A stretch of 64,000 nt of DNA from Chloroflexota bacterium (GCA_040753815.1 JBFMDU010000005.1:85350-149349); one strand, 5' to 3'; positions 33,365 to 48,364 are shown, counted from the stretch's first letter. Program-made: numbers and translations. The notes: generated by a model not told the origin, from the letters alone.

Positions 33365-34453
33365 TTAAAAGACCGCCTTCTTCTTACGTCTCAAAAGATA
33401 CAGGAAGAACGGCGCGCCCAGGAACGCCGTGATGACCCCGACCGGCATTTCCGCCGGCGCCGTCAGCGTCCGCGCCGCAGTATCCGCCAGAATGAGAAAA
33501 CTGGCTCCAGCCAGTGCTGAAAGCGGCAGGAGAAAGCGGTGGTCCGGCCCCCATACCAGCCGCACCGCATGGGGGACGATGATGCCGACAAAGCCGATAA
33601 TACCGCAGAAAGAGACAGCCGAAGCGGTGATAAGGGTAGCAACACCCAGCAGGACAAGTTTGACGCGCTCGACATTGATGCCCAGTTGCTGGGCCTGTTC
33701 CTCGTCCAACTGCATCACATTGAGCGGTCTGGCATATAACGAGATAACTGCGACCCCGGCAATCACATAGGGCGCGACGATAGCTACCTGCGCCCAGTTG
33801 CTCACCGAAAACCGCCCCAATATCCAGGCGATTATCCCGTGAAGACGGTCGCCGGAAATCACAATGAGATACGAGGTAATCGACGCCAGGAAAGCTCCCA
33901 GCGCCACACCGGCCAGAATCAGGGTCGTCACTGGCAGGGTCTTGCCGACACGGGCGATAGCGTAGACGACGGCCACGGCGCCGATGCCGCCGGCAAAAGC
34001 CAGGACTGGAATCAGACCAAGCATGGCGGCGTCGGCCATAACCGGCAGGAGAAAGCCGGCGGCCGCACCCAGCGCCGCACCCTGCGAGACGCCGATGAGG
34101 TAAGGGTCGGCCAGCGGATTGCGGAACAGCCCCTGATAGGTCGCCCCGGCTACTGCCAGTGCCATGCCGACCAGCCCGGCCAGGAGCACCCGCGGCAGTC
34201 TGATATCAAAGATAATCGTCTGCAAAGCCGTGGAGACTTCTGCCGCTTCTATGAAAGGCAAGCGGGACAACCATGCCTTAGCCAGGTCACCCAGCGGTAT
34301 CTGGGTGCTTCCCACTGCCGTCGCCAAGAAGACCACCAGCGCCAGCAAGATAGCCAGCCCGGCCATAGCATAGACGCGCCGCCGCCACGGAAGGTAGAGG
34401 ACCAGGTCAACCTGTCTGACGGTATCCGTCTGTTTTACCGAAACAGCTTTCAC
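33365..34453 (-). CDS. btuC: Cobalamin ABC transporter permease (FecCD family)
   Basis: DIRLPRV, QGLFRNPLADPY, GFVGIIVPH, ADTAAR. The ORF-track start (34474) lies inside the attenuator hairpin, so the true start is at or after the GTG at 34453. Confidence 0.9.
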   Translation of the reverse strand: MKAVSVKQTDTVRQVDLVLYLPWRRRVYAMAGLAILLALVVFLATAVGSTQIPLGDLAKAWLSRLPFIEAAEVSTALQTIIFDIRLPRVLLAGLVGMALAVAGATYQGLFRNPLADPYLIGVSQGAALGAAAGFLLPVMADAAMLGLIPVLAFAGGIGAVAVVYAIARVGKTLPVTTLILAGVALGAFLASITSYLIVISGDRLHGIIAWILGRFSVSNWAQVAIVAPYVIAGVAVISLYARPLNVMQLDEEQAQQLGINVERVKLVLLGVATLITASAVSFCGIIGFVGIIVPHAVRLVWGPDHRFLLPLSALAGASFLILADTAARTLTAPAEMPVGVITAFLGAPFFLYLLRRKKKAVF

Positions 34454-34455
34454 CG

Positions 34456-34490
34456 AAAAAAATCCCCTTGCCACCCGAGCAAGGGGATTT
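34456..34490 (-). terminator. Intrinsic terminator (riboswitch expression platform)
   Basis: Minus strand AAATCCCCTTGC-TCGGGTG-GCAAGGGGATTT followed by a U-run. Confidence 0.8.
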
Positions 34491-34569
34491 CACGACTTAC
34501 GCTTGGTCTTGCGGACCTTTCCCGAATCAGCCCGCTACAAACAATAAGTCCCGCCCCCTTACTCCGCGG

Positions 34570-34705
34570 AGGCAGAAAACTCTGGCTGGGGCTGACGTCC
34601 TGGCTATACAGTAGGCGGGACTGCGCCGGAATCACACCGGCTTGCCGTCCAATTAAGCCCCTCGGTCGCCCGGGGGCGCCCCATTTGCACTATTCAGTTG
34701 TCTAA
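34570..34705 (-). ncRNA. Cobalamin riboswitch
   Basis: Minus strand ...GTGC...GGCAAGCCGGTGTGATTCCGGCGCAGTCCCGCCTACTGTA...AGCCAGA...CTGCC matches the B12-element core; sits directly upstream of the btu/cob operon. Confidence 0.85.
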
Positions 34706-34749
34706 AAGGTAACAGAGAAACGGGACAAAGTCAACACCCACCACGCCAT

Positions 34750-35172
34750 TTAGATGTACCAGTTGATGGTCGCGTCACTTGCCAGAGGTAGGAACGTAGC
34801 CAGTCCCATGGTACCATCAACTTCCGAACGCAGGTCACTCCGGGCAATATTAAGTGCCGCCATTGCATTCGGGCAAGCGTATATCTTCAACCCGAGAACC
34901 CTGGCATCTGCCAACTGCGTTTCCAGTGTCTGGATGCCGCCTGTCGCCAATCCACGCTGAATACGTTCCTTAGTCAACGGCGAAGTCTCGTCACCCATTT
35001 GCATCAGACGGTTGCCAACAAAACGGCCTAAAGCCCCGTAAGTAAGGAGGACATATACTTCCATACCGGACGCAAGCGCCACCTGCGCCAGAGACAGGGC
35101 GTAACTCACCCTGTCGTAAGCTTCACTGTGGAGAATGATAGCAACCCGCTTTCCCTCAGTGCGGGCCCCCAT
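34750..35172 (-). CDS. DsrE/DsrF-like (DrsE_2) protein
   Basis: VAIILHS...ALSLAQVALASGMEVYVLLTY, KIYACPNAM, GLATFL...INWYI. Confidence 0.8.
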   Translation of the reverse strand: MGARTEGKRVAIILHSEAYDRVSYALSLAQVALASGMEVYVLLTYGALGRFVGNRLMQMGDETSPLTKERIQRGLATGGIQTLETQLADARVLGLKIYACPNAMAALNIARSDLRSEVDGTMGLATFLPLASDATINWYI

Positions 35173-35182
35173 AGTCACTGTC

Positions 35183-35671
35183 TTAGTTTCGCCTATTCCG
35201 AATAGTATCGGCCCAGCGCAGTAGCGGTACACCGGCGCCCCGGGACTCAGCGTAATGCGTCCCGAGATCATCTAGTTGGCCCGGTGATAACCGTTCGGTA
35301 AGTATGTTGAGACCGTCGCAGTTACTCACATGCACCAGCAGTGCCCTGGCCGCCTTAGACACCGCCTTCCTTTCTTCTCCAGAAAGCGTTGACTGGGACA
35401 GCAGTCTGGCCGCCGTCTTGGCAGTCTCGATGGCTCCATCATGTTCGCCTATGAGGGTGTCCACATAATCACCCAGAAATTCCCGCAGGGTCGGATAGAG
35501 GGATTCCTCTTCATAGCGAAAATGGGGGCCAACCAGCGTATCAATGTCGCCTAGAATTTTACGGGCTTTATCCAGGTCCCCGACCTCGGCGGCCCCGGCC
35601 AGATTCAAAAGGCCGTCACGAACCTTCCGGTGATCCTCCCGGAATTCGACGATTGGGTCAAGCTTTGCCAT
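35183..35671 (-). CDS. Hemerythrin-like (HHE) protein
   Basis: FREDHRKV, PHFRYEEESLYP, GEHD, VHVSNCDGL. Confidence 0.82.
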   Translation of the reverse strand: MAKLDPIVEFREDHRKVRDGLLNLAGAAEVGDLDKARKILGDIDTLVGPHFRYEEESLYPTLREFLGDYVDTLIGEHDGAIETAKTAARLLSQSTLSGEERKAVSKAARALLVHVSNCDGLNILTERLSPGQLDDLGTHYAESRGAGVPLLRWADTIRNRRN

Positions 35672-35683
35672 CTTCCTTCCTCC

Positions 35684-36925
35684 TTATTTCGTTTTCTTAA
35701 TTTTCACTATCCAGTCCTGCGGGCCTTTCTGCTCGTACTCCCACTGATAAGCGTCCTTATATTCGGCCTCAAACTGGTAGTGGAGCGGTTTGGGGTCGTG
35801 GTCGTTAATAATCCTCAACGTTTCGCCAGGCCTCAAGGCATCCCAGTTCTCAAATATCTTGTCATGCCGCAGGAAAGGCGGCAGGCTCCTCAAGTCCAGT
35901 GTAACCACCTTAGGTCCCTCCTCATGATGTTCTTTCCCCGGTGTAAAACAACAATATCCAATCCGATCGCACGCCTTCTTAATCTCTGCCCATTCTCCAT
36001 CGGACAGCACCTGAAGCGCTATCTGATAGAGGATGTTATCCTCCTTGAAAATATGACCCTCAAGCTCCTGAGTGAGGAATTCCCCGGCATCTATAACCCG
36101 TGTTTTGAATTCGCTGAATGGAGTATCCTCAGCGTTGTGGCTGGCCCCGTATAGTTCCTTTTTCTTCTGCCGCAGGTCCACATGCTCTGCTTTCATAATT
36201 TGCGGCGGCTCGACCACGTCGTGCTTCTCCAGCACCGGGAACAGTACCTCTTCCTCGCGCTGGTGATGACTTTCGGCTTCAACTAGGTGATGAGCGATGT
36301 CCTTCAGCCTTTCCAGATCACCGCCCAGGTCGGCAAGGTTGTCCTTATCCTTCAACCCCTCCACAATGGTCTTGAGCTCAGACAAATTGCGCAGGATGAC
36401 CTTATGCTCCTCCATAAAAGTATGGATCGGGTGCCCTGGCGGCGCTTCAAGTTTCTGGGCCACCAGGCTCTCCCTCATGATATCCAGGTGGACATCGCAC
36501 AGGCTTTTCCTGATATCCTCGTGAGAAACCCCTTCCCGGATTAACTCCTGCTCCAGCCGTCCCAGCGTCCCAGCGTCCACCGTTTCCAGCAACTTCCTGG
36601 CCTTGTTCTTAGCTTCCTGAGAGACCTGTCCCTCTTTCAACTCCTTAAGTAATTGCCTGAACTGCGCCTTCTTCTCGTCCTCCGGGCCGGTACCGGTTCG
36701 GACTACCTTCAAAATCCACTCGTCCGGACCCTCTTTCTCGTATGTTACACTGAATTCACCCCGGGCCTTGAGCATATAGACCAGCGGCACCGGATTAAAC
36801 TCCACGACAATTCTCAAGGTTTCGCCTTCAGCCAGTTCCTCGATGGCCGGGAAAATAACCTGTTCTCTCTGACCATGCTCCAGCTTTCTTACATCAACTG
36901 TTCTTGCCGTATTAGTCGTAGTCAT
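35684..36925 (-). CDS. DUF2249-DUF438-hemerythrin-DUF2249 protein
   Basis: N- and C-terminal LDLR/DVR...NDHDPKPL domains; CDVH; HPIHTFMEEH; HHQREEEVLFP; HIFKEDNILY. Confidence 0.85.
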   Translation of the reverse strand: MTTTNTARTVDVRKLEHGQREQVIFPAIEELAEGETLRIVVEFNPVPLVYMLKARGEFSVTYEKEGPDEWILKVVRTGTGPEDEKKAQFRQLLKELKEGQVSQEAKNKARKLLETVDAGTLGRLEQELIREGVSHEDIRKSLCDVHLDIMRESLVAQKLEAPPGHPIHTFMEEHKVILRNLSELKTIVEGLKDKDNLADLGGDLERLKDIAHHLVEAESHHQREEEVLFPVLEKHDVVEPPQIMKAEHVDLRQKKKELYGASHNAEDTPFSEFKTRVIDAGEFLTQELEGHIFKEDNILYQIALQVLSDGEWAEIKKACDRIGYCCFTPGKEHHEEGPKVVTLDLRSLPPFLRHDKIFENWDALRPGETLRIINDHDPKPLHYQFEAEYKDAYQWEYEQKGPQDWIVKIKKTK

Positions 36926-36985
36926 CTTCCTCTCCTCCTTTCAAGTTTTCACGCGGACATGTTAGTCCTTCTCAACATCGCCGGA

Positions 36986-37001
36986 TACGACTATTGTCGT
37001 A
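36986..37001. promoter_or_regulatory. Crp/Fnr-type palindrome TACGAC-TATT-GTCGTA
   Basis: Perfect 6-bp arms about 60 bp upstream of the DUF438/hemerythrin gene; recurs across the island. Confidence 0.7.
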
Positions 37002-37158
37002 CTAAACTTTCCTCCGTAAATCAGACCCAAGCTACCAGTTCTTAGAGTTCTTCGCTGCGATAAGGAAGCTCACCCTGGTGTAAGGGTATTGGTCCAGCGT
37101 CTCAGTAGCTAAATCAGTCCAAGACGGACCGGGGTGATGGCGTTAGCAATCTTAAAGA

Positions 37159-37190
37159 GAAGGGGCCTAGCTCTACCGCAAGGCCCCTTA
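37159..37190 (-). terminator. Stem-loop after nirK
   Basis: AAGGGGCCT...AGGCCCCTT inverted repeat. Confidence 0.5.
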
Positions 37191-37198
37191 ACAGATTC

Positions 37199-38308
37199 CT
37201 AGTGACCCATGACCGGTTTGCCACTGCTGTCCGGCGGCGCTTCGCGCGGGCCCTTGTAGATTTCAGGATTGTCCAGACCCGATACTTTAAGTATGCCGAG
37301 CGCCCCTTTATCCATGGCACGGGATATAGCGTGATCAACAAGAACGAAGTCCCCGGGCACTTCTAACTTCAAATCCACTACCACCGCACCACCCGGCGGC
37401 ACCAGTGTCGTTTGGATACCCTGCTGGGGTGAAGATATGAGGTCTCCCATGAGGTACACGCGGTCGAAGATTTCCCCGATGATATGAAAGGACGAAATCA
37501 GGTTAGGCCCACCGACTCCAAAATAGATGCGGATAGTCTCACCAACATTAGCTTTGAGGGCGTGATCCCCGGTCAATCCATGGAACCTTCCATTGAACAA
37601 GACGTAAGTCGGCTTCTCGTCCTTGACCGCCTCCGTATCGAAAATCTGATGCCCCTTGGTTCCGGCTGGCCACTTGGTGTAAAAATCTCCCTGCATCACA
37701 TAGAACTCTTTATCGACTGGAGGTAGTCCTCCCTTCGGCTCCACCAGTATCAGCCCGTATAGGCCGTTGGCAATGTGCCAGGCGACATTAGGGATAGCAC
37801 AATGGTATATGTAGAGCCCGGGGGAAAGGGCTTTGAATTCGAAGCTGGTTTCTTGCCCTGGTGGGGTTCTGGTTGCCACAGCACCACCGCCAGGACCGGT
37901 AACGGCGTGGAAATCAACATCGTGGTTCTGCGGGTTAGACGCTGCGTTCTTAAAGTTCACCTTGACTGTATCGCCTACCATAACACGGAAAAACGGCCCG
38001 GGAACCTGCCCGTTAAACGTCCAGTAGGTGTAGGTAGTGCCATCCTCTATCTCGGCGACGAGTTCTTTAGCTTCCAGGCTAATCTCAACCCTTGTCGGCG
38101 TGGTCCGTTTCAACGGCGGTGGAAGGTCAGTCACAGACCTTGAAATGTATGGTACGTCAACTTGCCTGGCTGGCCCGGGCTTCTCCGTTCTGGCCACAGT
38201 AATCGAAGCCGGCGAGAATAAGCCGCCCAGTAAAATGCCGGTAATTATGCCCACCAGGGCAACTGCAATTGCAGTATAAACAAGTCTTCTTCTTTCACTG
38301 ATCGCCAT
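37199..38308 (-). CDS. nirK: Copper-containing nitrite reductase (AniA-like), N-terminal membrane anchor
   Basis: WTFNGQVPGP, HDVDFHA, GLYIYHCA...WHIANGLYG, SSFHIIGE, LVDHAISR. Confidence 0.93.
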   Translation of the reverse strand: MAISERRRLVYTAIAVALVGIITGILLGGLFSPASITVARTEKPGPARQVDVPYISRSVTDLPPPLKRTTPTRVEISLEAKELVAEIEDGTTYTYWTFNGQVPGPFFRVMVGDTVKVNFKNAASNPQNHDVDFHAVTGPGGGAVATRTPPGQETSFEFKALSPGLYIYHCAIPNVAWHIANGLYGLILVEPKGGLPPVDKEFYVMQGDFYTKWPAGTKGHQIFDTEAVKDEKPTYVLFNGRFHGLTGDHALKANVGETIRIYFGVGGPNLISSFHIIGEIFDRVYLMGDLISSPQQGIQTTLVPPGGAVVVDLKLEVPGDFVLVDHAISRAMDKGALGILKVSGLDNPEIYKGPREAPPDSSGKPVMGH

Positions 38309-38318
38309 GTTTTCCTCC

Positions 38319-41174
38319 TTAAATGGCCGCCGAAAGCGCCCAGACGGCCGCCATAGTCATGATAAATATGAAAGTCCCTATGGGAAGAAAGGCTCTAAAA
38401 GCCGTTTCTCTATCCGGCAGGAGCCGCAATGCCAGCTTGTATGCCGCAAAGATACTGAACACGAACCCGACCGTGACCATGAGCATTTGCATGATGTATG
38501 TCTGGTCGGCGCTCATGAGCTGCTGGACAGTGATCCCTTCCGGGATGACGCGGTTGAAGGGGAAATCCTGGGCCAGTGCCCGAATAACATCAAACACCGC
38601 CCCCCACGTACGGAATACATGGTCAAGAATATCGGCAAGGAATTTCATCCCGGCCAGCGGTAGTAAAGCATAACCAAAGTGAATAAAGAATTCCTTTACT
38701 GTCTTGTTTTTCATTCCACTGAACAGTTTTGAAAGATAGCTGAACCCGAATCCCAAACCAAGAGTCGCTGATATGCCTCCCAGGTATAACGCAATCACGC
38801 TCACAACACGAGGCCAGTCGTTGGGAGGTTCGCCAGCAGGCAGGACAAGCTTCAACACCGACCTTAAAGGCGACATGTAAAGCACCAGCAGTAGCGAGAC
38901 AATGGTGACCAGTGACGTGATGATGAGCGAGGCTACCGATTCATCCAGCTTGGCCGTAGTCCTCCCCCATAGGTCCAGCCCTGGTTTCCGGAACCCTATT
39001 TTCAGATTATAGTTGGGACATGCCTTAATACACTCGGTGCAGAGGATGCAGTTCAGATTCCGATCAACGCGCTCAGCGAACGGAGAATAACCACAATTCC
39101 AACAGCGTCCGCTTTCTAAAACCGCCGCGGCGTCATCCAGTCCTTTTTCAACTTCCCGGAACGACGTCTGACGTACGTTTGCTTCGAGCAAAGGCATGAT
39201 TGTCCTGGCTTTGAACTCAGCCGCCATTGCTGTCCCAGCACCGTCGTAACTGGCTGAAGTCCTGCCTTTCCTCAGGTCCATCCCTCTTAGATACCGTTCA
39301 ATCGAAACCGCCGCCTCTCTCCCGTCAGATATCGCATGGACAACATCGGCCGGCCCTCTTACCGCATCACCCCCGGCGAAGACGCCCGGCATATCGGTTT
39401 GCATCGTCAGCATATCAACTGAGAGGTACCCCGGTTCAGTGTATTTAAGTTCCGTCGCCAACCCCCGACCGTCTACTGATTGCCTGATAGCAACAATAAC
39501 GTTATCAACCTCAATTGCAAAGTCAGACACACTAACTGGCGTGAGACGCCGCTGATCATCCGCTTCCGGCTCACCAGCTTTCACATTAATACACTCAATA
39601 CCAGTCACCCGATTGCCGTTCGATAGTATGTTAATCGGCGCCGCTAGGTAATAGAACTTAATCCCTTCTGCCTCGGCGGCCTGTATCTCAGAAGCCAGCG
39701 CAGACAAGTCTTCACGTGACTGGCGGCTTATTACCGCGACTTCACCCGCGCCAAGCCGCCGCGCAACCCGGGCGGAGTGAATCGCAGCGTTCCCACTGCC
39801 AATGATACCCACTCGTCTTCCAATCTCGATAGTTCCGTTTACATTGACATCCCGGAGGAAATCTAGAGCGTTAATAACACCGGTATTCTCCTCACCCGGA
39901 ATACCTGGCTTCTGGCTGACCCCAGCGCCGATCCCCACGAAAACGGCCCGGTAGCCCTGCTGGAATAACGCCCCGATATCTTTAACCGGGGAACCAGTCT
40001 TGATTTCCACCCCCAAGCGCTTGATGTATTTTATCTCTCCATCGAGGATGTTCTTGGGCAGTCGGTAGCCTGGTATGCCGTACCGGAGGAGACCACCGGC
40101 TTCCGGCGCGGCTTCGAAGACCGTGACCGGGTAGCCCCGCTTAACCAGGTCATAAGCGCAGGTTAGCCCCGCTGGCCCGGACCCGACGACGGCCACCCGG
40201 TCGGAATGCTTTGCTCTCACCGGTTTGACCTTCTCTTCCCCCATCGCTAGGAACTGGTCTGCCATGTAGCGCTTAATATCGCGGATGGTCACGTTCCCAT
40301 CAACCTTCGCCCTCTCACATCCGATTTCACAGGGATGAGTGCAGACTCGTCCCAGCGTGCCTACCAGGGCCGTGGTCTTACGATGAAGTTCCACACCCTC
40401 GCGGTACCTGCCCTGCGCCGCAAGCTGAATGTAGCCAGCGCTGTCCACACCGGCAGGGCATGTCGCCTGACATAAGGGATACCCTTTCGAATCGATGGTG
40501 AAATCGCAGTGCCGGAGCATCATCGGGCAACCATAAGCCTGCTCGCTGCCGTTTATGCAAGCCTTCGCCTTACACTTGCGGCAGACTATCTCGCGCTTCC
40601 TACGGACTTCGAACGGAGCGGCCATCGAACTCATGCCAATAAAGACGGTCAGCGGACAAAGGTATAAACAAAAGGTCCGCCTTTCAAAGAAGAGATTTAT
40701 CCAGACCGGCCCGAGTATCATTACCGTAATCAACCCGGCGGTCAAAGCCGGGCTATTAGAAATACCGTAGCCGGTATCAAGAAAAATGAAGACCACAAAG
40801 AATACGATGCCTATCCACAGGTTGCGCAGGCGCCGAGGGTACTTAAAGTTGAATCCCAGCCCCCATTTCCTCTTCCACCACAGGCTCAGCCTCTGAAACC
40901 ACTCGCCGGCAACTCCGAAGGGACACATTATGCACCAACCCCGACCCACCAAAATGAAGAGCACGATGAGGAGTCCCCACCACACCACCCAGGTAAAAAC
41001 GGTACCGAAGTTGAAGGCCGGGTTGGAAACCCCCCAGAAGAGGGAGGCCGCGGCGATGATAAAAACTAAAAACGCCGGCGCCACCAGCAGAAACTGGAAA
41101 TAGCGGCGGGTAATAAGAAACTTCAGGGCACGCGCTTCAAGCAGGTTGGTAAGAATAACCTGTAGTTTTTTCAT
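38319..41174 (-). CDS. NapH/MauN-like membrane polyferredoxin containing an inserted GltD-like FAD/[4Fe-4S] oxidoreductase module
   Basis: N-terminal TMs with GRGWCIMCP and RTFCLYLCP; CQATCPAG, GRVCTHPCEIGC, VGSGPAG, GLLRYGIPGYRL, GVFAGGD, RCWNCG; then NCILCTECIKACP and C-terminal TMs. Confidence 0.88.
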   Translation of the reverse strand: MKKLQVILTNLLEARALKFLITRRYFQFLLVAPAFLVFIIAAASLFWGVSNPAFNFGTVFTWVVWWGLLIVLFILVGRGWCIMCPFGVAGEWFQRLSLWWKRKWGLGFNFKYPRRLRNLWIGIVFFVVFIFLDTGYGISNSPALTAGLITVMILGPVWINLFFERRTFCLYLCPLTVFIGMSSMAAPFEVRRKREIVCRKCKAKACINGSEQAYGCPMMLRHCDFTIDSKGYPLCQATCPAGVDSAGYIQLAAQGRYREGVELHRKTTALVGTLGRVCTHPCEIGCERAKVDGNVTIRDIKRYMADQFLAMGEEKVKPVRAKHSDRVAVVGSGPAGLTCAYDLVKRGYPVTVFEAAPEAGGLLRYGIPGYRLPKNILDGEIKYIKRLGVEIKTGSPVKDIGALFQQGYRAVFVGIGAGVSQKPGIPGEENTGVINALDFLRDVNVNGTIEIGRRVGIIGSGNAAIHSARVARRLGAGEVAVISRQSREDLSALASEIQAAEAEGIKFYYLAAPINILSNGNRVTGIECINVKAGEPEADDQRRLTPVSVSDFAIEVDNVIVAIRQSVDGRGLATELKYTEPGYLSVDMLTMQTDMPGVFAGGDAVRGPADVVHAISDGREAAVSIERYLRGMDLRKGRTSASYDGAGTAMAAEFKARTIMPLLEANVRQTSFREVEKGLDDAAAVLESGRCWNCGYSPFAERVDRNLNCILCTECIKACPNYNLKIGFRKPGLDLWGRTTAKLDESVASLIITSLVTIVSLLLVLYMSPLRSVLKLVLPAGEPPNDWPRVVSVIALYLGGISATLGLGFGFSYLSKLFSGMKNKTVKEFFIHFGYALLPLAGMKFLADILDHVFRTWGAVFDVIRALAQDFPFNRVIPEGITVQQLMSADQTYIMQMLMVTVGFVFSIFAAYKLALRLLPDRETAFRAFLPIGTFIFIMTMAAVWALSAAI

Positions 41175-41749
41175 CTTATCCAGCGCCGCGCAACGGCAGT
41201 GAAACCGCCGAAAACGACGACAACCAGCGCCGCGCTGGCAAATGGCAGGTATTTAGTCATCCCACCACCGGCTTCCCCGATTATAAGATGCGCCTTCATG
41301 TAGGGATGGCCGATACCGCAAAACACCGTGCAGTACATCGCGTATGTCCCCTCGGAAATATCGGCCGGTATCGTGACGCGGCGCGTTATCTTCTCCCCTG
41401 GCGGCAGATCCATGTTGATACCCAGTTCATTAATCGCAAAACCGTGGGTGATATCCTCGCTCTGAAGCGTCAGCATAATATTTTCCCCACGGTTTACCTT
41501 GATGGCCCTGGGTTCAAATTCCCATTGCTGAGCCTTCAGTTCAAACTCCCTGACCCCATTAACCATCCTACCTTCCGATATGCTCACGGCGGCCACATTA
41601 TGGACGCCATACGCCATACCGAAGGTGATCAGGATGCCGATAACCGCGACTATAGCAGCAATAAGCGGCACTTTGTTGAAGACGCCGCTGCTGTTCGAAA
41701 CCATCTGTGGGTCAGCCCCGCTGTTGGTCATCTTTACAAATATCCACAT
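41171..41749 (-). CDS. Membrane-anchored CuA cupredoxin (Cox2/NosZ C-terminal-like)
   Basis: EDITHGF and CTVFCGIGHPYM (complete CuA ligand set); N- and C-terminal TM helices. Confidence 0.88.
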   Translation of the reverse strand: MWIFVKMTNSGADPQMVSNSSGVFNKVPLIAAIVAVIGILITFGMAYGVHNVAAVSISEGRMVNGVREFELKAQQWEFEPRAIKVNRGENIMLTLQSEDITHGFAINELGINMDLPPGEKITRRVTIPADISEGTYAMYCTVFCGIGHPYMKAHLIIGEAGGGMTKYLPFASAALVVVVFGGFTAVARRWIR

Positions 41750-41816
41750 ACCTTTATTTTCTCAACCCGATTGAACGACCATCCTGGTTAACATAATGGA
41801 ATATCTGACCTGTTCA

Positions 41817-41878
41817 TAGGACTTTTGTCGTAATTCTAAAACCTGGTGGCGCCGAAGCCTTTTGGGACAAAAGTCGTA
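41817..41878. promoter_or_regulatory. Two Crp/Fnr-type boxes in a divergent promoter
   Basis: TAGGAC-TTTT-GTCGTA (41817-41832) and TGGGAC-AAAA-GTCGTA (41863-41878). Confidence 0.65.
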
Positions 41879-41942
41879 GCCGCAAATCAAATAACCGCGT
41901 ATCGTACGGAACACCAAGCCTTTCGAAGAGGAGTACCGTAAA

Positions 41943-42437
41943 GTGGATATCAGGAAAGCTCTGACAGATGCCATGGAAGAATATTTCAATGGCGATACGA
42001 AGAGAATAAACCATGCCCGCAAAGTGACCGAATATGCCGAGAAACTAATCGACCTGGAAAAAGGAGACGGTGTAATTGTGCTGGGAGCATCAGTCCTCCA
42101 CGACATCGGCATTCACGAGGCGGAGAGGAAATATAACAGCACCGCCGGGAAATACCAGGAAATTGAGGGGCCGCCTATCGCTCGCAGCATATTAAATAGA
42201 CTCGGATTCCAGCCCGAGCAAATCGATGAAATATGCAACATCATTGCTCATCACCACAGCCCCGGAATAATCAATACCCAAAACTTCAAGATACTCTATG
42301 ACGCTGACTGGCTGGTGAATTTAAGAGATGAATACGATATCAAGGACCGGCAAAAGCTGACGAACATCATTGATCGCGTCTTCCTAACCGATACCGGCAA
42401 GTCCATGGCGCGGGCGATATACCTGGGAAAACACTGA
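41943..42437 (+). CDS. HD-domain phosphohydrolase
   Basis: RINHARKV, VLHDIG, AHHH, LYDAD. Confidence 0.9.
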   Translation: MDIRKALTDAMEEYFNGDTKRINHARKVTEYAEKLIDLEKGDGVIVLGASVLHDIGIHEAERKYNSTAGKYQEIEGPPIARSILNRLGFQPEQIDEICNIIAHHHSPGIINTQNFKILYDADWLVNLRDEYDIKDRQKLTNIIDRVFLTDTGKSMARAIYLGKH

Positions 42438-42495
42438 CAACAGACGAACTACGGGTAAAGCCACAAATTCGTACCGACAAGTATACTGCCTGCAC

Positions 42496-43215
42496 CTAAA
42501 TCCCATAGGATTGAAGACCATCGGACATAGCGAAATAAAAGGCGGCCTCGGCATGAATTCTGGCTGTGTCGAGTACCGGGATACCAATCGAATCTTGAGT
42601 CATCACCATCGGCAACTCGGTACACCCGAGTATCAGAGCCTGTATCTCTTTCTCTTTCGCCATTACCCTTGCGAGACTGCATAATCCCTGTCGCGTTTCC
42701 TCAACAATGACGCCGCTCACCAATTCCGACATGATCTTGTGGTGAATATAATCCTGCTCTGGCTCTTCAGGGGTAACCACGGCTATCCCATACCTAGTCG
42801 AAAGTACTCTGTTATAGAAGCCAGCCTTCATCGTGAAGTTTGTACCGAAGAGTCCAACCCTGCTATACCCAAGACCCTTTGCCACCCGGCCGGTCTCCTC
42901 TACTATACTCAGCAAGGGGACTGGTGAGCTGGCAGCCACATCGTCGAATACCACATGTGGTGTATTTGAAGCCAATAAAGCGAATTCCGCCCCAGCTCTG
43001 TGAAGAGACCTGATAGCACCGACCAGCAGGTGGGCTAGGCCTGATAAATCCCGGGCGGCGAGAAGACCAACCATCTCCTCAAAGTTCAAGCTATAAACGA
43101 GTACTTCCGGATAGAAGTACTCCTTGCCTTTTCGTGGACCAAGGCGCGTTATGGTGCGATAGTATTCGATGGTTGACTCCGGAGCCATCCCTCCGACGAT
43201 ACCTATCTTTTTCAT
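42496..43215 (-). CDS. Aspartate/glutamate racemase family protein
   Basis: IGIVGGMAPESTIEYY, ASNTPH, LGCTELP. Confidence 0.92.
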   Translation of the reverse strand: MKKIGIVGGMAPESTIEYYRTITRLGPRKGKEYFYPEVLVYSLNFEEMVGLLAARDLSGLAHLLVGAIRSLHRAGAEFALLASNTPHVVFDDVAASSPVPLLSIVEETGRVAKGLGYSRVGLFGTNFTMKAGFYNRVLSTRYGIAVVTPEEPEQDYIHHKIMSELVSGVIVEETRQGLCSLARVMAKEKEIQALILGCTELPMVMTQDSIGIPVLDTARIHAEAAFYFAMSDGLQSYGI

Positions 43216-43288
43216 CGTCCACCACTTAGGAATATCGTGATTCCCGGCAGTCTATGTTTTCTGTTCTCAGGCTAACAACCATGCCAAC

Positions 43289-43795
43289 CTACTTTCGTAC
43301 GGGGCGTTGCTTTTCCAGCTTTTGAAATACCCGAAGAATCTTCTCATTCTGGTTTTTATCCAGATGCATATTGGCCATCATAAAAAGGATATGATCCTCC
43401 TTCTCTATGTGCTGACGCAACGTTGAAATGATGTGCTGTCCCTCGTACTTGACCACCTCTCTTGCATTACCATCGTTAGAGTTCTTGATTACACGAGCCA
43501 GGGCATCCTGGAACCTGTCATTGCTTGCCCGCAGGTACTCATGCTCCGCCAACATAACTCCTATGGGTCCACTGTCCCTGGGTAAAAACTTCTCTATCTC
43601 AGGGAACAACCCCTCCTCTTCCTTGATGAAATGAGTCCATATCTCATCCTTAAAGAACTTACCGTATCCCTGAAGACGTGAAATATCAGCCTTGATGTTC
43701 ATCCTGTCAAGAACTTCGTCAAGACCATCCAGTATTTTCAACACCTCCCGATGCTCCTCGCTCAAGATATCAGTCGGTTTAAATTGTGTGTCCAT
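43289..43795 (-). CDS. Hemerythrin-like protein
   Basis: LSEEHREV, THFIKEEEGLFP, MLAEH, HIEKEDHILF. Confidence 0.9.
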   Translation of the reverse strand: MDTQFKPTDILSEEHREVLKILDGLDEVLDRMNIKADISRLQGYGKFFKDEIWTHFIKEEEGLFPEIEKFLPRDSGPIGVMLAEHEYLRASNDRFQDALARVIKNSNDGNAREVVKYEGQHIISTLRQHIEKEDHILFMMANMHLDKNQNEKILRVFQKLEKQRPVRK

Positions 43796-43892
43796 TTTCT
43801 ACTTTTATTCCTCTTCCTCGATTATCCCCTTCCAAGAGCCGGTGTGGTTATAACCTCGTTGGAAAATATAGTTAACCTTCCCCCGACTAAAC

Positions 43893-43908
43893 AACGACAT
43901 AAGTCACA
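43893..43908. promoter_or_regulatory. Crp/Fnr-type box AACGAC-ATAA-GTCACA
   Basis: Upstream of the hemerythrin gene. Confidence 0.5.
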
Positions 43909-44027
43909 CTGCACCTAACAATATCCAGCGGGCGGCTATCAATGGCAGAGGGATAAAGCGCCAGATATCGTCAAGTACTAGAAGTTACCTCCGCTAGTGA
44001 TGTTCCCAATCCGGAAAACTACAAATG

Positions 44028-44411
44028 TTACGGGAAACAGCCAAGCTGACACCTGACAATCTTTATCTTCAACATGGTGGCGGTGTCGCCGATCTCCTTC
44101 AGACTGACCCCGAGTTCCGTCCTTAACTTGAATGCTTTTGCACAGGGGAGACTTCCATTGACGAGAGAGCCTTTCACTGCCTCAGCCATGACATCGCTAA
44201 TGCTTGCCTTGTCGAGGTCGTCATGCGTCGCCTTTTTTACGGCGAAGCATCCCAGCTGGCAATCTCTGATGCGTACTCCCATCTCATCTGCCGCATCCCC
44301 GATAGTTTTTGGCACCACTTTTAATTTTCCCGCTAATTCAAGAGCGCTGGAGCAGGGAAGATAGCCACCAACCAGAGAGGCTTTTATTTCATCCTTCAAT
44401 GTCGTCGCCAT
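44028..44411 (-). CDS. Small Cys protein with an internal duplication (LPC...CQLGCF x2)
   Basis: YLPCSSALELA...IRDCQLGCF and SLPCAKAFKL...IVRCQLGCF. Confidence 0.8.
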   Translation of the reverse strand: MATTLKDEIKASLVGGYLPCSSALELAGKLKVVPKTIGDAADEMGVRIRDCQLGCFAVKKATHDDLDKASISDVMAEAVKGSLVNGSLPCAKAFKLRTELGVSLKEIGDTATMLKIKIVRCQLGCFP

Positions 44412-44468
44412 GCTTAATACCCTCCAGAAATATCCTGTTTATTGTCGGACATTCGCCAAGAAGCCGTA

Positions 44469-44484
44469 AATGACTTTTGTCGGG
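44469..44484. promoter_or_regulatory. Crp/Fnr-type box AATGAC-TTTT-GTCGGG
   Basis: In the divergent promoter of the Crp/Fnr gene. Confidence 0.55.
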
Positions 44485-44535
44485 ATTCTATGGTAGTATT
44501 TCGATAGCCATACATAACTTTCGAGATTCTTACTG

Positions 44536-45198
44536 ATGCCTCCAACAATTAATTTCTTAAAATCACTACCCTACTTCGCCGCCTTGCGGCCAGCCACACT
44601 AGACAACATTGCCAGGACGGCGACGGAGCTTTCCTTCGCCAGGGGCGAGGTCGTCATACTGGAGGGAGAGCCCTGCCGCGGCTTATACATCGTCAGGATG
44701 GGGCGAGTGCGCATCTTCAAAAGTTCGGCTGAGGGACGGGAGCAAGTGCTGTACATCGCTGGCCCGGGCGATACCTTTAACGACGTCCCGGTCTTCGATG
44801 ACGGCGCCAACCCGGCCAGCGCTTCGGCACTAGAACCAGCCACCATCTACCTCATTCCCAGGCAGACAATGACCTACCTGGCAACCGACAGCCAGACGGC
44901 CCAGGCAATTATCAAGGTCTTCGCCACCCGCCTCCGCCACCTGACTACGATAGCTGAAGATCTCTCTTTCCGCAGTGTCCCCAGCCGGCTGGCCAAGCTG
45001 CTACTAAAGCTGGCCGTGGTCGAAGGCGGCGAAGCGCCAATCCCACAATTAACCCAGGACGAGATGGCGGCCATGGTCGGCTCGGTCAGGGATGTCGTCG
45101 GTCGGTCGCTTAGAACCATGACAGGCATGGGAGTTATCGAAATAAAGGGGAAGCGCATTACTATTACCGATCCCGATAAGCTTAAGGACATAAGTTGA
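44536..45198 (+). CDS. Crp/Fnr-family regulator (no FNR Cys cluster; DNR/HcpR-like)
   Basis: cNMP-binding fold (GRVRIFKSSAEGREQ, GDTFNDV); HTH LTQDEMAAMVGSVRDVVGRSL. Confidence 0.92.
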   Translation: MPPTINFLKSLPYFAALRPATLDNIARTATELSFARGEVVILEGEPCRGLYIVRMGRVRIFKSSAEGREQVLYIAGPGDTFNDVPVFDDGANPASASALEPATIYLIPRQTMTYLATDSQTAQAIIKVFATRLRHLTTIAEDLSFRSVPSRLAKLLLKLAVVEGGEAPIPQLTQDEMAAMVGSVRDVVGRSLRTMTGMGVIEIKGKRITITDPDKLKDIS

Positions 45199-45201
45199 GT
45201 C

Positions 45202-45217
45202 TGCGACAAAAGTCGTA
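45202..45217. promoter_or_regulatory. Crp/Fnr-type box TGCGAC-AAAA-GTCGTA
   Basis: Upstream of the ferredoxin/NOR operon. Confidence 0.65.
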
Positions 45218-45295
45218 TCACCATTGCCGCCCCTTGCCTACAATCACCCTGTCGCTTGACAAGGCAGGGGCTTGGTATAAATAAATAGAGGACTA

Positions 45296-45589
45296 ATGAA
45301 GACGGCCATACCCGAAGTTGACAGCGAAAAGTGCACCGGATGCGGGGACTGTGTCGAACAATGTCCCACCGATGCGGTTGAGGTGATTGATGGCAAGGCT
45401 GTCATCGTCAGGCCCGGCGACTGCACCTACTGCACCGACTGTGAAGCCTACTGCCCTGCCCACGCGATCCGATGCCCGTATGAAATCGTCCTCCTTCCGG
45501 CAGGAACCAGAAAACGTACTCCGGTGAGGAGGTCACACGGCAAAAGAGCAGATGGCACGCACACAAAGACACGCACATTCCGAAGGTAG
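45296..45589 (+). CDS. 2x[4Fe-4S] ferredoxin
   Basis: CTGCGDCVEQCP and CTYCTDCEAYCP. Confidence 0.92.
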   Translation: MKTAIPEVDSEKCTGCGDCVEQCPTDAVEVIDGKAVIVRPGDCTYCTDCEAYCPAHAIRCPYEIVLLPAGTRKRTPVRRSHGKRADGTHTKTRTFRR

Positions 45590-46100
45590 CGAAAATCCAG
45601 CCGCCAACCCTGTACCATCAGGGTGGCTGAAAACTTCCCGAAGTCGGCTCCGTTTCGAATTAGCTGGCCTGGCCTTTGCCTGTCGCCACGGCTTTGCCCC
45701 GGAGGACTACGCCCATCACCTGTGGAGCCGCGGTGCGGCGGCGTGGATGGGCAAGGAAAATCCCGACGCCGCCGAATACTTGCGTAAAGAAGCCGGAGCC
45801 TGCCGGGAGTTCTACCCCGAAGTAGCTATGTCCCTGATAAAGGCCCGCCCCGGGATGGCCGAACTTGTCTTCACCCGGGGCTGTCTCGGGGGATGGGGAG
45901 ACGACCAGTGGGCACTGGCCAGAAGTCTGGGACTGAACAAGAAACGCATCTGTGCCTACTGTCAGGAATCTTTCCGTGTCTGGACAAAGCAGTTAGGACT
46001 GGCATCACATATCGGCCCGTCAACGGATGGTCACTGCCACCTGCTGGTAGTAATAGATGGCGATTCGTTAGCGCCTCCAGGCGCTGACTGCAACAAATAA
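45552..46100 (+). CDS. Hypothetical Cys/His-containing protein
   Basis: 182-aa ORF filling the gap in the operon; RGC, CAYC, HCH. Confidence 0.6.
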   Translation: MARTQRHAHSEGSENPAANPVPSGWLKTSRSRLRFELAGLAFACRHGFAPEDYAHHLWSRGAAAWMGKENPDAAEYLRKEAGACREFYPEVAMSLIKARPGMAELVFTRGCLGGWGDDQWALARSLGLNKKRICAYCQESFRVWTKQLGLASHIGPSTDGHCHLLVVIDGDSLAPPGADCNK

Positions 46101-46115
46101 AAGGAGGTATGGCTT

Positions 46116-46220
46116 ATGTACGTAACCGATTACATTTTCTGGGCTTACACCACCTTCCTGGTGGCGGCTGCGGTCTTCATGGCCGTCTTCGTCTCCCTGG
46201 TGCGGAAGAAGAGGGAGTAA
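46116..46220 (+). CDS. 34-aa single-TM protein, probable small subunit of the heme-copper enzyme
   Basis: AAGGAGG RBS; MYVTDYIFWAYTTFLVAAAVFMAVFVSLVRKKRE; stop lies 1 nt before subunit II; not in the ORF track. Confidence 0.75.
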   Translation: MYVTDYIFWAYTTFLVAAAVFMAVFVSLVRKKRE

Positions 46221-46221
46221 C

Positions 46222-46644
46222 ATGGAAAAACACGAACGAGTCTGGCTGGGAATCCTGTGTGTCGTCTTTATCATCGTCAACGCCATCACCATCTCACCGC
46301 TGGTCCCCTGGCAGGAGTGGCAGGTCTGGTCAAAACCAGTCCCGGAAAAGATAATCCCGGTCGAGGTGGAAAATTACCGCTTCAAGCTCCCTCCACAGGG
46401 AATCGAGGCCAAAGCCAACCAGTACGTGGAGTTCGTCGCCACATCGAAGGACGTGACCTACGGTTTCGGGGTTTTCCGGCAGGATGGCTCCCTGGTTTTC
46501 CAGATGCAGGTCATACCCGGCCGTGAGAGCCGGCTTGCCTGGAAATTTGACGCCCCCGGCGTCTACGATGTCCGCTCCACCGAATACTCCGGGCCAAGAC
46601 ATCCGGAGATGTTCGTCAAGAACGCCATCCGGGTAACGGCATAG
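46222..46644 (+). CDS. Heme-copper oxidoreductase subunit II lacking CuA ligands
   Basis: One TM plus cupredoxin fold; DVTYGF (His->Tyr) and STEYSGPRHPEM (both Cys->Ser). Confidence 0.88.
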   Translation: MEKHERVWLGILCVVFIIVNAITISPLVPWQEWQVWSKPVPEKIIPVEVENYRFKLPPQGIEAKANQYVEFVATSKDVTYGFGVFRQDGSLVFQMQVIPGRESRLAWKFDAPGVYDVRSTEYSGPRHPEMFVKNAIRVTA

Positions 46645-46657
46645 AGGAGACACTGAA

Positions 46658-48364
46658 ATGCTGAAATTAGGCTGGCAAGAGAAATGGACACTAAGGTACG
46701 CAGTGGTCGCCCTCTTATTCTTAGCCCTGGCCGGTATCGAAGGCGTCATGATGCGTTCGCAATTAATATCGCCAACTTCACTGGAGAGCCTGGAAACGAC
46801 ACTGGCGGCACTCCGTGGCGGCAGTCAGTCGGGGCCGGCTGAGCTGTTTTACTCCGTCCTGACCGCCCACCCCATCGTCGGCATCTACGGCTTCGCCTAC
46901 ATGGCCGTCTTCGGCGCTTTTTACTTCCTGGTGCCATTCCTGCTGAACAAGCCAGTCCGCCACAAGCGCCTGGTTCCGGTCAATTTCTGGCTCCAGATTG
47001 CCGGTGTGCTGGTCTGCTGGGGAGCCGGTTTCTTCGCCCTGTTCAATGCCACCTACACCCTCTACTGGCCCTTGCCGGTAGCCTACGACCGGGTGCCGCT
47101 AATAGGCAGTATCGTCTTCGGCTTCGGCCTTGCCTTAATTGAAGCTAACGTCCTGCTCTTCGTTTTCAATGTTTTCAGCACCGTACTCAGCAAAAGCAAC
47201 CCGCATCCTTACAGCTTCCGCCAATTCCTTGCCTCGGCTTTCGGCATACCCCGCCTGTTAAAGCTGTTCGGCAGGAAACCGGCCAACGGCGGCGAGGTCA
47301 ACTATAACGACCTTCCTGTCTTCGTCGTCGCTGTCGGGCGCGGGTCTATTGATACCGTTATTAACGCCATCGTTCTGCTGACCGCCGGTGTGCTCATGCT
47401 GGTCTATGGCCTACCCGCCCTTATCCAGGGCATCATGCTCAACTCCGGCGCTGTGGACGCCCTCATTTATAAGAACTTCTTCTGGTGGGGGCTGGACATG
47501 ATTGCCGATGGCAACGTTCTCATGTACGCCGCCGGCACCTGGTACCTGTTGGTCCCTCTATTGGTGGGCCGCAAGCTCTACGGCGAATCCGTGGTAAGAA
47601 CCGTCATCCTGGCCGACCTGCTGGTGTCCATGGGCGTCTGGAGTCACCATCTGCTGGCCGACCAACCCCAACCCTTCGGCCTCCGCCTCATCTCCGGCCA
47701 GTTCATCACCTGGGGTGAGTTCTTCACCATGGGTCTGACCATGTTCGCCATCCTGATGACCATCTGGCTGGCCAGACCGGTCAAGTTCACCGCGCCGCTT
47801 AAGTTCGTCCTCGCCTCGGTCTTCGGATTTGCCGTCGGCGGTATCGCCGGCATCACCCAGGCCAACGTCGGCCTTAACGTCGTTCTCCACAACACCCAGT
47901 GGGTTATCGGCACCCACGGCCACATGATGCTGTTAGGAGGGCTAGCATCACTGCTGTTCGCTGTGATTTATGCCCTTATCCCGATGCTGACCAAAGCCGA
48001 AATCTGGAGCCAGAAGCTGGTCAGCGTCCACCTAGGGCTGTGGCTGCCCGGCGCCGTCCTCATGGCTGACTCCATGGGGCTGGCTGGCATCGAGGGCATG
48101 TTGAGGCGGACGCTCTACTCGGGCGGCGAGTACCAGTTGCACATGATTGTCGCTACTCTTGGCGGCATCCTAATGGCCGCTGGTTTTACCGTTTTCCTGG
48201 TCAACGTCATCAAGACGCTGGGGCTGAAGAATGTGCTCGGACTGGTCTTACCGGAACAGTGGCTGATGCCAAAGCCAGCCGTAGCGGCAGGCGTTATCCC
48301 GGCTACTGGATTGCCTGAACCAGCGCCGGTTCCTGTGACTGTAATCCAGAACATCCAAAGATAA
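46658..48364 (+). CDS. Heme-copper superfamily subunit I, gNOR-type nitric oxide reductase
   Basis: TAHP (low-spin His), WWGLDMIADGNVL in place of WxxGHPxVY, VWSHHL, THGHMM; about 13 TM helices. Confidence 0.8.
   Translation: MLKLGWQEKWTLRYAVVALLFLALAGIEGVMMRSQLISPTSLESLETTLAALRGGSQSGPAELFYSVLTAHPIVGIYGFAYMAVFGAFYFLVPFLLNKPVRHKRLVPVNFWLQIAGVLVCWGAGFFALFNATYTLYWPLPVAYDRVPLIGSIVFGFGLALIEANVLLFVFNVFSTVLSKSNPHPYSFRQFLASAFGIPRLLKLFGRKPANGGEVNYNDLPVFVVAVGRGSIDTVINAIVLLTAGVLMLVYGLPALIQGIMLNSGAVDALIYKNFFWWGLDMIADGNVLMYAAGTWYLLVPLLVGRKLYGESVVRTVILADLLVSMGVWSHHLLADQPQPFGLRLISGQFITWGEFFTMGLTMFAILMTIWLARPVKFTAPLKFVLASVFGFAVGGIAGITQANVGLNVVLHNTQWVIGTHGHMMLLGGLASLLFAVIYALIPMLTKAEIWSQKLVSVHLGLWLPGAVLMADSMGLAGIEGMLRRTLYSGGEYQLHMIVATLGGILMAAGFTVFLVNVIKTLGLKNVLGLVLPEQWLMPKPAVAAGVIPATGLPEPAPVPVTVIQNIQR

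Follow-up and report, generated by a model that had tools for sequence, protein, structure and literature searches.

A stretch of 64,000 nucleotides (nt) from a Chloroflexota bacterium (GCA_040753815.1 JBFMDU010000005.1:85350-149349; here the window, equivalent to C5:85350-149349 of a 23-contig, 1,985,016-base assembly that is 90% complete) carries, around a gene for a Crp/Fnr-family regulator at 44536-45198, several copies of a 16-base pair (bp) palindrome. The locus raises the question of which protein reads this palindrome, how it acts on the neighbouring genes and to what it responds. A first-pass annotation had listed copies at 36986, 41817, 41863, 43893, 44469 and 45202, with a variant at 4109, and had proposed that they define a nitric oxide (NO) regulon controlled by the 44536 protein. 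Our analysis, made on sequence, suggested that the palindrome, T(A/G)(C/G)GAC-W4-GTCGTA, is probably the operator of the 44536 protein, which is predicted to be a class II activator, and that it represents a retuned CRP/HcpR-like box.

Copies of the palindrome and their promoters

All seven 16-mers were present where the annotation had placed them, and all are intergenic and upstream of genes: TACGACTATTGTCGTA at 36986, in which the outer arms are perfect, TAGGACTTTTGTCGTA at 41817, TGGGACAAAAGTCGTA at 41863, AACGACATAAGTCACA at 43893, AATGACTTTTGTCGGG at 44469, TGCGACAAAAGTCGTA at 45202 and the variant CATGACCTAAGTCATA at 4109, with the spacer CTAA. Each of them keeps GA-N6-TC, the feature taken to define a Crp/Fnr operator (positions 7-8 of each half), and the description of a CRP-like geometry with other outer bases was borne out, G7-A8 being retained at the CRP/FNR positions. 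The consensus first given, TA(C/G)GAC-WWWW-GTCGTA, stood only in part. Its core, GAC-W4-GTC, is the sole part common to six of the seven boxes, 4109 departing from it in the spacer; the box at 43893 differs from the consensus at three outer positions and that at 44469 at four, so that only the core matches in these two.

Within the window, TASGA-N6-TCGTA was matched three times against 0.12 expected, and TACGAC-N4-GTCGTA with up to two mismatches was matched six times against 1.23 expected, a number reached in none of 100 shuffles. Two of these six matches, at 17210 and 39160, are not among the boxes of the annotation and have non-A/T spacers. Over the whole assembly there are 27 copies of GAC-W4-GTC, six of which fall within 8.2 kilobases (kb), where 0.11 would be expected (Poisson P = 2.5e-9); the remaining 21 showed no intergenic enrichment (P = 0.22). 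Chance could be excluded because the matches in the window exceed both expectation and shuffles and because six of the 27 genomic cores cluster in 8.2 kb, and the motif thus stands above background in counts, shuffles and genome clustering alike.

The boxes at 36986, 41817, 41863, 45202 and 4109 have a TANNNT hexamer starting exactly 29.5 bp from the box centre, towards the downstream gene, and the box at 43893 has its hexamer, TATATT, at 30.5 bp. The same measurement was made for 95 boxes from related loci, a set of 80 loci, each encoding a relative of the 44536 protein, drawn from species-representative genomes, nearly all of them metagenome-assembled genomes (MAGs) of Dehalococcoidia or Chloroflexota. 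The hexamer started at +29.5 in 57 of these boxes and at +30.5 in 21 (78/95), other positions accounting for about three each. With the -10 element set at -12 to -7, the box centre comes to lie at -41.5 or -42.5, and this spacing strongly indicates the class II arrangement of CRP and FNR. For the window boxes, transcription would be predicted to begin near 45251, 36952, 41783, 41912, 43858 and 4158. A consensus promoter scan found no complete -35/-10 promoter at these box spacers and no -35-like hexamer; the -35 position of the 45202 promoter, for example, reads TATCAC (45216-45221). The missing -35 therefore fits activator-dependent promoters. The -10 spacing in the window and in the related boxes, together with the retained G7-A8, upheld the assignment of the boxes as Crp/Fnr operators.

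The box at 44469 is the exception, with no TANNNT at 29.5 bp in either direction; a GACAAT, read by eye, stands at +30.5 towards the gene for a 127-amino acid (aa) protein. In orthologous loci a box at this position, 86-109 bp before the regulator gene, drives the divergent gene. The claim that the regulator has a box in its own promoter thus held as to position, a box lying upstream of the gene, but this box is weak and its orthologues serve the other direction. Whether its role is in the divergent promoter, in autoregulation or in both is uncertain.

The 44536 protein, its relatives and its recognition helix

The 220-aa product of the 44536 gene matched PF00027 (cNMP_binding, 77 bits) and PF13545 (HTH_Crp_2, 56 bits), both above their cut-offs, and its 98 PDB relatives all belong to the Crp/Fnr family. 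None of the NCBIfam equivalogs (FtrB, FixK, Fnr, NtcA, LdrP, PtrA) was reached, the best being FtrB (PRK09392) with 83 bits against a cut-off of 211, and the LdrP match was weak (30.7 bits against 300). A homologue search returned 2,312 relatives at E <= 1e-10, which carry generic names only.

Boxes flank the orthologues of this gene across the related loci of other species. Close relatives (55-63% identity) have TACGACTTTTGTCGTA at a distance of 86-109 bp upstream of the regulator gene and, beyond its stop codon and separated from it by 4 nt, TCCGACAAAAGTCGTA; in distant relatives (40-50% identity) the same places are occupied by TGAGACAAA(A/G)GTC(A/G)CA, TGCGAC-N4-GTCGCA or TGTGACAAAAGTCACA. 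The nearest relative found (79% identity, locus L081) keeps the boxes before the DUF2249-hemerythrin gene and before the ferredoxin/oxidase operon, and a box orthologous to 45202 precedes the same small ferredoxin in 32 loci and in L081 as well. Among 120 sampled genomes of the same order, each had at most two strand-hits of TACGAC-W4-GTC, compared with seven in this genome. In members of the family with an Arg-Glu helix (see below) we also saw that the downstream box TGAGAC... starts with the TGA stop codon of the regulator itself (L019, L020, L023, L026, L028, L032, L034, L035, L039, L040 and others); the end of the regulator coding sequence therefore overlaps the operator of the next promoter in that clade.

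A weight matrix was built from 32 boxes of 18 other species only and scanned over the whole assembly. Its four best matches genome-wide were the boxes at 45202 (24.7 bits), 36986 (23.1), 41817 (21.3) and 41863 (19.4), all intergenic, with lower scores for 4109 (12.9), 44469 (10.9) and 43893 (6.0). The fifth-best match, TACGACTTAGGTCTTA at C23:5025-5040, lies 76 bp upstream of a gene for a 794-aa glycyl-radical enzyme (PFL-like plus Gly_radical) and has TATACT at +30.5; this gene is a possible remote member of the regulon. High-scoring matches at C10:47416 and C19:27726 are inside coding sequence and were treated as chance, and TTGACTTTTGTCAA at C7:49884, which sits between an HlyD/ABC efflux operon and a TetR gene, was set aside as more likely a TetR operator.

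Translation of 45082-45111 gave SVRDVVGRSL, which agrees with the atypical helix VRDVVGR reported by the annotation. In CRP, Arg180 contacts G5, Glu181 contacts C7' and Arg185 contacts G7/T8' (PMC2677863, PMC1274295). The position of Glu181 is taken here by Asp186 (codon 45091-45093), and the close clade has Asp at this position without exception (19/19), the remaining sequences Glu (62/62). For the comparison of helix and operator, boxes were defined only by the core and the -10 hexamer, to avoid bias. With Arg-Asp helices (19 loci, 60 half-sites), position 5 was A in 65% of half-sites and position 6 was C in 80%, TACGAC being the commonest; with Arg-Glu helices (62 loci, 138 half-sites), G was found at position 5 in 91%, position 6 was variable, and TGAGAC, TGCGAC and TGTGAC were commonest. 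The Arg-Asp clade is monophyletic (support 100/98) and nested among Arg-Glu sequences of Chloroflexota. The box could be tied to the 44536 protein because the Arg-Asp clade goes with TACGAC half-sites and the Arg-Glu helices with TG(A/C/T)GAC.

Several observations weigh against this assignment. Two of the boxes, at 43893 (6.0 bits) and 44469 (10.9 bits), are weak. The Glu-to-Asp change arose once, on one branch, so that the covariation amounts to a single evolutionary event, and substitutions at R59, R68 and V184 fall on that branch too. Finally, an R-E..Q-R clade combines Glu with C at position 6, which leaves the loss of G5 as the one feature peculiar to Asp.

The assembly contains three Crp/Fnr genes. 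The second, at 48445-49131 on the plus strand, encodes the helix GSRESTSRLL (R-E..S-R) and has no closer relative in the 80 related loci. We noted TGTGACAAACCTCACA at window positions 49173-49188, 42 bp past the stop codon of this gene and 65 bp before a gene for a 206-aa membrane protein; the box is conserved behind the second regulator in L081 (~14626-14642). Perfect TGTGA-N6-TCACA sequences number four in the assembly, all intergenic, and the other three (C7:115720, C7:129742, C7:129868) are beside genes for TAXI-TRAP-like solute receptors; these boxes look like a second, separate Crp/Fnr regulon. The third gene (C16:56556-57299) adjoins a response-regulator gene and encodes an FNR-like helix, TTIETAIRVL (I-E..I-R). 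As a binder of the palindrome the second regulator was discounted, given the synteny and its own TGTGA box. The flanking boxes in other species, the covariation of helix and operator, and the absence there of the second regulator, with its own TGTGA-N6-TCACA box, all favour the annotation's choice of the 44536 protein as the cognate factor.

Target genes, origin of the island and signal

The boxes, the genes that they are predicted to serve and the regulator are as follows.

4109-4124, plus strand: variant box; -10 TAGAAT at 4146-4151; for tandem zinc-ribbon genes at ~4183-4410 and ~4422-4694
34750-36925, minus strand: target operon; DUF2249-DUF438-hemerythrin-DUF2249 protein (35684-36925), hemerythrin of 162 aa (35183-35671), DsrE-like protein of 173 aa (34750-35271), assigned by Pfam
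36986-37001, minus strand: box; -10 TAACAT on the minus strand at 36959-36964; for the 35684-36925 operon
37199-41749, minus strand: target operon; CuA-type cupredoxin (41171-41749), 951-aa polyferredoxin/GltD-like fusion (38319-41174), copper nitrite reductase NirK (37199-38308)
41817-41832, minus strand: box; -10 TATGTT on the minus strand at 41790-41795; for the cupredoxin/951-aa Fe-S flavoprotein/NirK operon
41863-41878, plus strand: box; -10 TATCGT at 41900-41905; for the HD-domain gene at 41943-42437 (plus strand)
43893-43908, minus strand: weak box; -10 TATATT on the minus strand at 43865-43870; for the hemerythrin gene at 43289-43795 (minus strand)
44469-44484, strand undefined: weak box between the divergent 127-aa gene (44028-44411, minus strand) and the regulator gene at 44536
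44536-45198, plus strand: Crp/Fnr-family regulator of 220 aa, the proposed cognate activator
45202-45217, plus strand: box 4 nt past the regulator stop codon; -10 TACAAT at 45239-45244; for the ferredoxin/NO reductase (NOR)-like operon
45296-48364, plus strand: target operon; 2x[4Fe-4S] ferredoxin (45296-45589), 182-aa unknown protein (45552-46100), cupredoxin-like protein of 140 aa (46222-46644), heme-copper oxidase subunit I-like protein (46658-48364)

NirK was assigned by NCBIfam TIGR02376 (356 bits, above cut-off), and its operon also gave PRK12771 and CoxB/NosZ C-terminal matches. The ferredoxin at 45296-45589 is a Pfam Fer4 protein; for the NOR-like oxidase at 46658-48364 the NCBIfam matches (CtaD/CcoN) were weak and below cut-off. 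Gene order in the 45296-48364 operon is identical in L081-L084. Homologues of the 34750-36925 operon and of the HD-domain protein are found in clade-A neighbourhoods, the family of the hemerythrin at 43289-43795 is present in 12 related loci, and the zinc-ribbon domain of 4183-4694 is beside, or fused to, a box-controlled hemerythrin in 13. In other Dehalococcoidia this domain was also seen as an N-terminal fusion on the hemerythrin divergent from the regulator. The 127-aa protein (44028-44411, minus strand) consists of two repeats of ~60 residues, each with an LPC motif and a terminal CQLGCF; no Pfam or NCBIfam family matched it, and in eight related loci it directly follows a box-controlled ferredoxin. 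Outside the predicted targets, a cobalamin riboswitch (RF00174, 34573-34698, minus strand, 33.2 bits, above gathering) precedes FecCD/ABC transporter genes (33365-34474, 32536-33363).

Part of the island appears to be of separate origin. The block 37199-44411 (nirK operon, HD gene, aspartate racemase, hemerythrin and 127-aa gene), with three boxes inside, is missing from the nearest-relative locus (L081-L084), where the DUF2249-hemerythrin gene adjoins the regulator, and its G+C content is 0.48-0.54, compared with 0.56-0.58 around it. Because of this lower G+C and its absence from the nearest relative, the block looks like an insertion that carried its own boxes. An orthologue of the 44536 protein above 50% identity was found in none of the 120 genomes sampled from the order, and the one that belongs to the same genus has no orthologue of any kind; the closest relatives are in MAGs and metagenome contigs from elsewhere. 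These results make lateral gain the probable origin of the regulator and its island, the regulon having grown by the addition of box-bearing operons. On this comparison of loci, NirK and the NOR-like oxidase appear as recent recruits to the regulon.

The mechanism that we propose is that a dimer of the 44536 protein would bind the box centred ~41.5 bp upstream of the transcription start and, substituting for the absent -35 element, would recruit RNA polymerase as a class II activator. At least five island promoters would be switched on in this way, namely those of the DUF2249-hemerythrin operon, the cupredoxin/Fe-S flavoprotein/NirK operon, the HD gene, the hemerythrin gene and the ferredoxin/NOR-like oxidase operon, with the zinc-ribbon genes at 4183-4694 and the glycyl-radical enzyme gene on C23 as probable further targets. 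In one clade the equivalent of CRP Glu181 would have become Asp, and the half-site would have changed from T-G-N-G-A-C to T-A-C-G-A-C. Both the binding and the choice of activation over repression are inferred, as is the signal.

It is extremely improbable that the palindromes are chance matches, or RNA hairpins or terminators that bind no protein. Once transcribed, the palindrome could fold into a 6-bp stem closed by a 4-nt loop, and some of the core copies in the genome lie in coding sequence and look like chance; against this stand the shuffle and clustering statistics, the conservation of the same positions in other species, the fixed -10 spacing, which puts the boxes upstream of transcripts, and the lack of a T-run after them. 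Candidate RNA or terminator elements were also rejected on direct scans, since an Rfam gathering scan of 34000-50000 gave only the cobalamin riboswitch and a terminator scan gave nothing at the boxes. We consider it highly unlikely that the boxes are bound by the second (48445-49131) or third (C16) Crp/Fnr protein and that the 44536 protein has another operator. The genome does have three such genes, and the boxes at 41863, 43893 and 45202 have one TG(N)GAC half-site that an R-E helix could perhaps read, but in the 80 loci the boxes flank orthologues of the 44536 protein, with no closer relative of the second regulator present, and the covariation of helix and operator concerns those same orthologues; the second regulator moreover has its own TGTGACAAACCTCACA box, kept in L081, and the helix of the third is of the FNR-like I-E..I-R type. 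A repressor, which from a box overlapping the -35 region would keep RNA polymerase out until released by a signal, is a little easier to entertain, though still unlikely: a box spanning -49 to -34 would cover the -35 position, and at 44469 the -10-like hexamers are only 12.5-17.5 bp from the centre, as for repression. The distance to the -10 element, however, is fixed to the base pair in 78/95 boxes, a hallmark of class II promoters in CRP and FNR, and the consensus scan found no -35-like hexamer with these -10 elements.

In the alignment of the 44536 protein to M. tuberculosis CRP, its best relative of solved structure (113 bits), the contacts to cyclic AMP (cAMP) are replaced (FNDV for FGEL, ANPAS for PRTSS) and the phosphate-binding Arg is lost; the phosphate-binding cassette of CRP proper (E. 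coli Glu72, Arg82, Ser83) is absent, FNDVPVFD being invariant in the family instead. Cys47 is the only cysteine of the protein, which is not extended at the N-terminus; the four-cysteine [4Fe-4S] ligand set of FNR, three of them N-terminal and one central, is absent. The targets here include NirK, the NOR-like oxidase, RIC-like and DUF2249 hemerythrins and Fe-S proteins, and NrfH-like and NnrS-like genes stand behind boxes in related loci. DUF2249 proteins are induced in haloarchaeal (Haloferax) denitrification and are needed in nitrate respiration of Thermus (PMC11218638, PMC6282519). From this gene content, the idea that the signal is NO or nitrosative damage comes down just on the probable side.

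A number of findings count against NO as the signal. The sensor domain has no His, Cys or Met that the whole family shares: His135 occurs in 74% of one group and 35% of the other, and Cys47 in 100% (Arg-Asp clade) and 42%, respectively. The lack of such an invariant residue gives heme binding no backing and argues against a shared ligand, though heme may yet be bound. NirK occurs in 1/80 related loci and the NOR-like oxidase in 0/80, and the targets of the Arg-Glu clade include sigma-70, Hsp20 and GrpE. In Proteobacterial members (Neoroseomonas) the neighbours are DUF6448, HlyD efflux, PepSY and a two-component system, with no N-oxide gene. The neighbours conserved in the clade are the ferredoxin (44/80 loci), hemerythrins/DUF2249 proteins, small zinc-ribbon proteins, the 127-aa protein and the HD protein. 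Among Arg-Glu relatives, we observed class II boxes before genes for a full-length sigma-70 (~472 aa), Hsp20 and GrpE (L026, L035, L045, L050, L051 and L067, ~360 bp after the regulator; L028, L074). The target genes across loci suggest a wider stress role for the family. A rival account keeps operator, regulator and activation, and either exchanges NO for another signal (oxygen or peroxide, or general redox or Fe-S damage) or dispenses with a ligand, the protein acting by its own abundance only; we see it as a serious alternative, although not a probable one. Thermus SdrP is a ligand-independent Crp/Fnr activator. Targets such as ferredoxin, hemerythrins, NifU-like and glutaredoxin-like proteins, Hsp20, GrpE and sigma-70 would fit a stress response in a strict anaerobe, related loci seldom include NirK or the NOR-like oxidase, and, with no invariant ligand His/Cys, Cys47 of the Arg-Asp clade could be a thiol switch. 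Set against it are the DUF2249 and RIC-like hemerythrins, which are tied to N-oxide metabolism, the boxes that precede NrfH-like and NnrS-like genes at other loci, and the nirK and NOR-like operons under the box here, an arrangement usual for the NO-responsive DNR, NnrR and HcpR (PMC1274295). The term 'NO regulon' suits the gene content of this island (NirK, NOR-like oxidase, RIC-like/DUF2249 hemerythrins); the conserved targets of the clade are stress and Fe-S proteins.

Taking the reading of a 44536-controlled class II regulon further, we would only tentatively propose that Crp/Fnr proteins with the FNDVPVFD signature form a widespread uncharacterised subfamily, a master activator of the nitrosative/oxidative-stress response in Dehalococcoidia that senses without cAMP, an Fe-S cluster or a classical His/Cys-ligated heme, and that the single change of Glu181 to Asp is sufficient for the shift from TG(N)GAC to TACGAC. 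If so, the shift would insulate the regulon from the co-resident CRP-like (TGTGA) and FNR-like paralogues, and laterally acquired nirK and NOR-like operons would have been wired in just by carrying the box. The nirK block, absent from the nearest relative yet equipped with boxes of its own, illustrates how a regulon can expand through genes gained laterally. Should NO prove to be the signal, the 44536 protein would count as a predicted NO regulator of NirK and a NOR-like enzyme; no earlier one for Chloroflexota was found in the literature searched. The combination of Arg-Asp-Arg with T-A-C-G-A-C would make a natural entry in a residue-to-base code for Crp/Fnr proteins, useful for orthogonal regulators, and one matrix would predict the co-responding genes of a stress/N-oxide regulon of uncultured Dehalococcoidia, including those for the 127-aa, 182-aa, zinc-ribbon and DUF2249-hemerythrin proteins. 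These points are of interest both for studies of the Crp/Fnr recognition code and for annotators of uncultured Dehalococcoidia.

Comparison with known regulators

The control logic is familiar and involves no new principle; it is the specificity that was not found in the papers searched. No match to the motif turned up in that literature, exact strings matching only the TTGACnnnnGTCAA motif of Rodionov 2005, and the newness claimed for it thus stands with the qualification that it is a variant of the CRP/HcpR-type box. The family of the 44536 protein is not covered by the CRP/FNR meta-regulon paper (PMC8510549).

The coupling of NO stress to di-iron repair and NO-reducing enzymes is analogous to that exerted by NsrR and NorR over ytfE (RIC), hmp and norVW in enterobacteria (PMC1274295), although those regulators belong to other families (Rrf2 and sigma-54 enhancer-binding), have unrelated operators and do not use class II activation but repress their targets or activate them through sigma-54.

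DNR and NnrR of denitrifying proteobacteria are alike in being Crp/Fnr proteins beside nir and nor genes, with class II promoters. They activate nitrite-reductase and NO-reductase operons, as is proposed for the 44536 protein, and P. aeruginosa DNR (3dkw) is a relative of it by sequence (65 bits). The DNR box is TTGAT-N4-ATCAA, read by an E..SR helix, whereas the helix here is R-D..G-R, the box is TACGAC-N4-GTCGTA and the host is a Dehalococcoidia anaerobe that has NirK and the NOR-like oxidase rather than cNOR or qNOR; no palindrome of the TTGAT-N4-ATCAA type was found in a symmetric GA-N6-TC scan of the intergenic regions of the window. DNR senses NO via heme, in contrast to the 44536 family, which lacks an invariant His/Cys. 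The DNR and FNR motifs are themselves highly similar (PMC8510549).

Of the regulators described so far, HcpR (the HcpR1 branch, in delta-proteobacteria and cyanobacteria; PMC1274295, PMC545781) comes closest; like the 44536 protein, it is a Crp/Fnr protein without the FNR cysteine cluster. Its boxes are wTGTGAnnnnnnTCACAw or wyTTGACnnnnGTCAArw (PMC1274295), and the latter shares the GAC-N4-GTC core with the boxes described here. Its local regulons include ferredoxin-like, hemerythrin-like and N-oxide genes, with norB in Synechocystis (PMC1274295); in HcpR, likewise, residues of the helix co-evolve with the motif and the signal was inferred only from regulon content. Unlike the case of HcpR, an hcp gene is missing, a 768-aa CdhA-like open reading frame in a Cdh-like cluster without a box (a CO dehydrogenase/acetyl-CoA synthase alpha subunit flanked by Cdh-like genes, C10:63798-67708) being the sole Prismane-family match in the assembly, and the half-site TACGAC (A5, C6) with an Arg-Asp helix is not among the classes in the text of the papers searched. 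P. gingivalis HcpR, a heme-based NO sensor, was not among the 60 best PDB matches of the 44536 protein, and a literature search for a link between HcpR and Chloroflexi found nothing. Membership of HcpR is thus not supported. The published rule that pairs R180 with G (PMC1274295, PMC2677863) also differs from what is seen here, where the Arg is kept and G5 is lost.

The best structural relatives by sequence are of the CRP type (E. coli CRP; M. tuberculosis Rv3676; C. glutamicum GlxR): 3mzh, 3d0s and 3i54 (113 bits) and 4byy (109 bits). The 16-bp geometry, G7-A8 and T4, the equivalents of Arg180 and Arg185 and the class II position at -41.5 are all as in CRP. The differences are that the triad Arg180-Glu181-Arg185 is now Arg-Asp-Arg, that A5-C6 stands in place of G5-T6, that the cAMP contacts are replaced and that the regulon is small and local; the C at position 6 replaces the T of the consensus boxes of CRP, FNR and published HcpR. 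By its defining residues and its boxes, therefore, the 44536 protein would be classed as neither CRP proper nor FNR nor DNR-type, and the box itself, judged by its bases, appears to be a lineage variant on a continuum with TGTGAC-N4-GTCACA, and not an unrelated operator.

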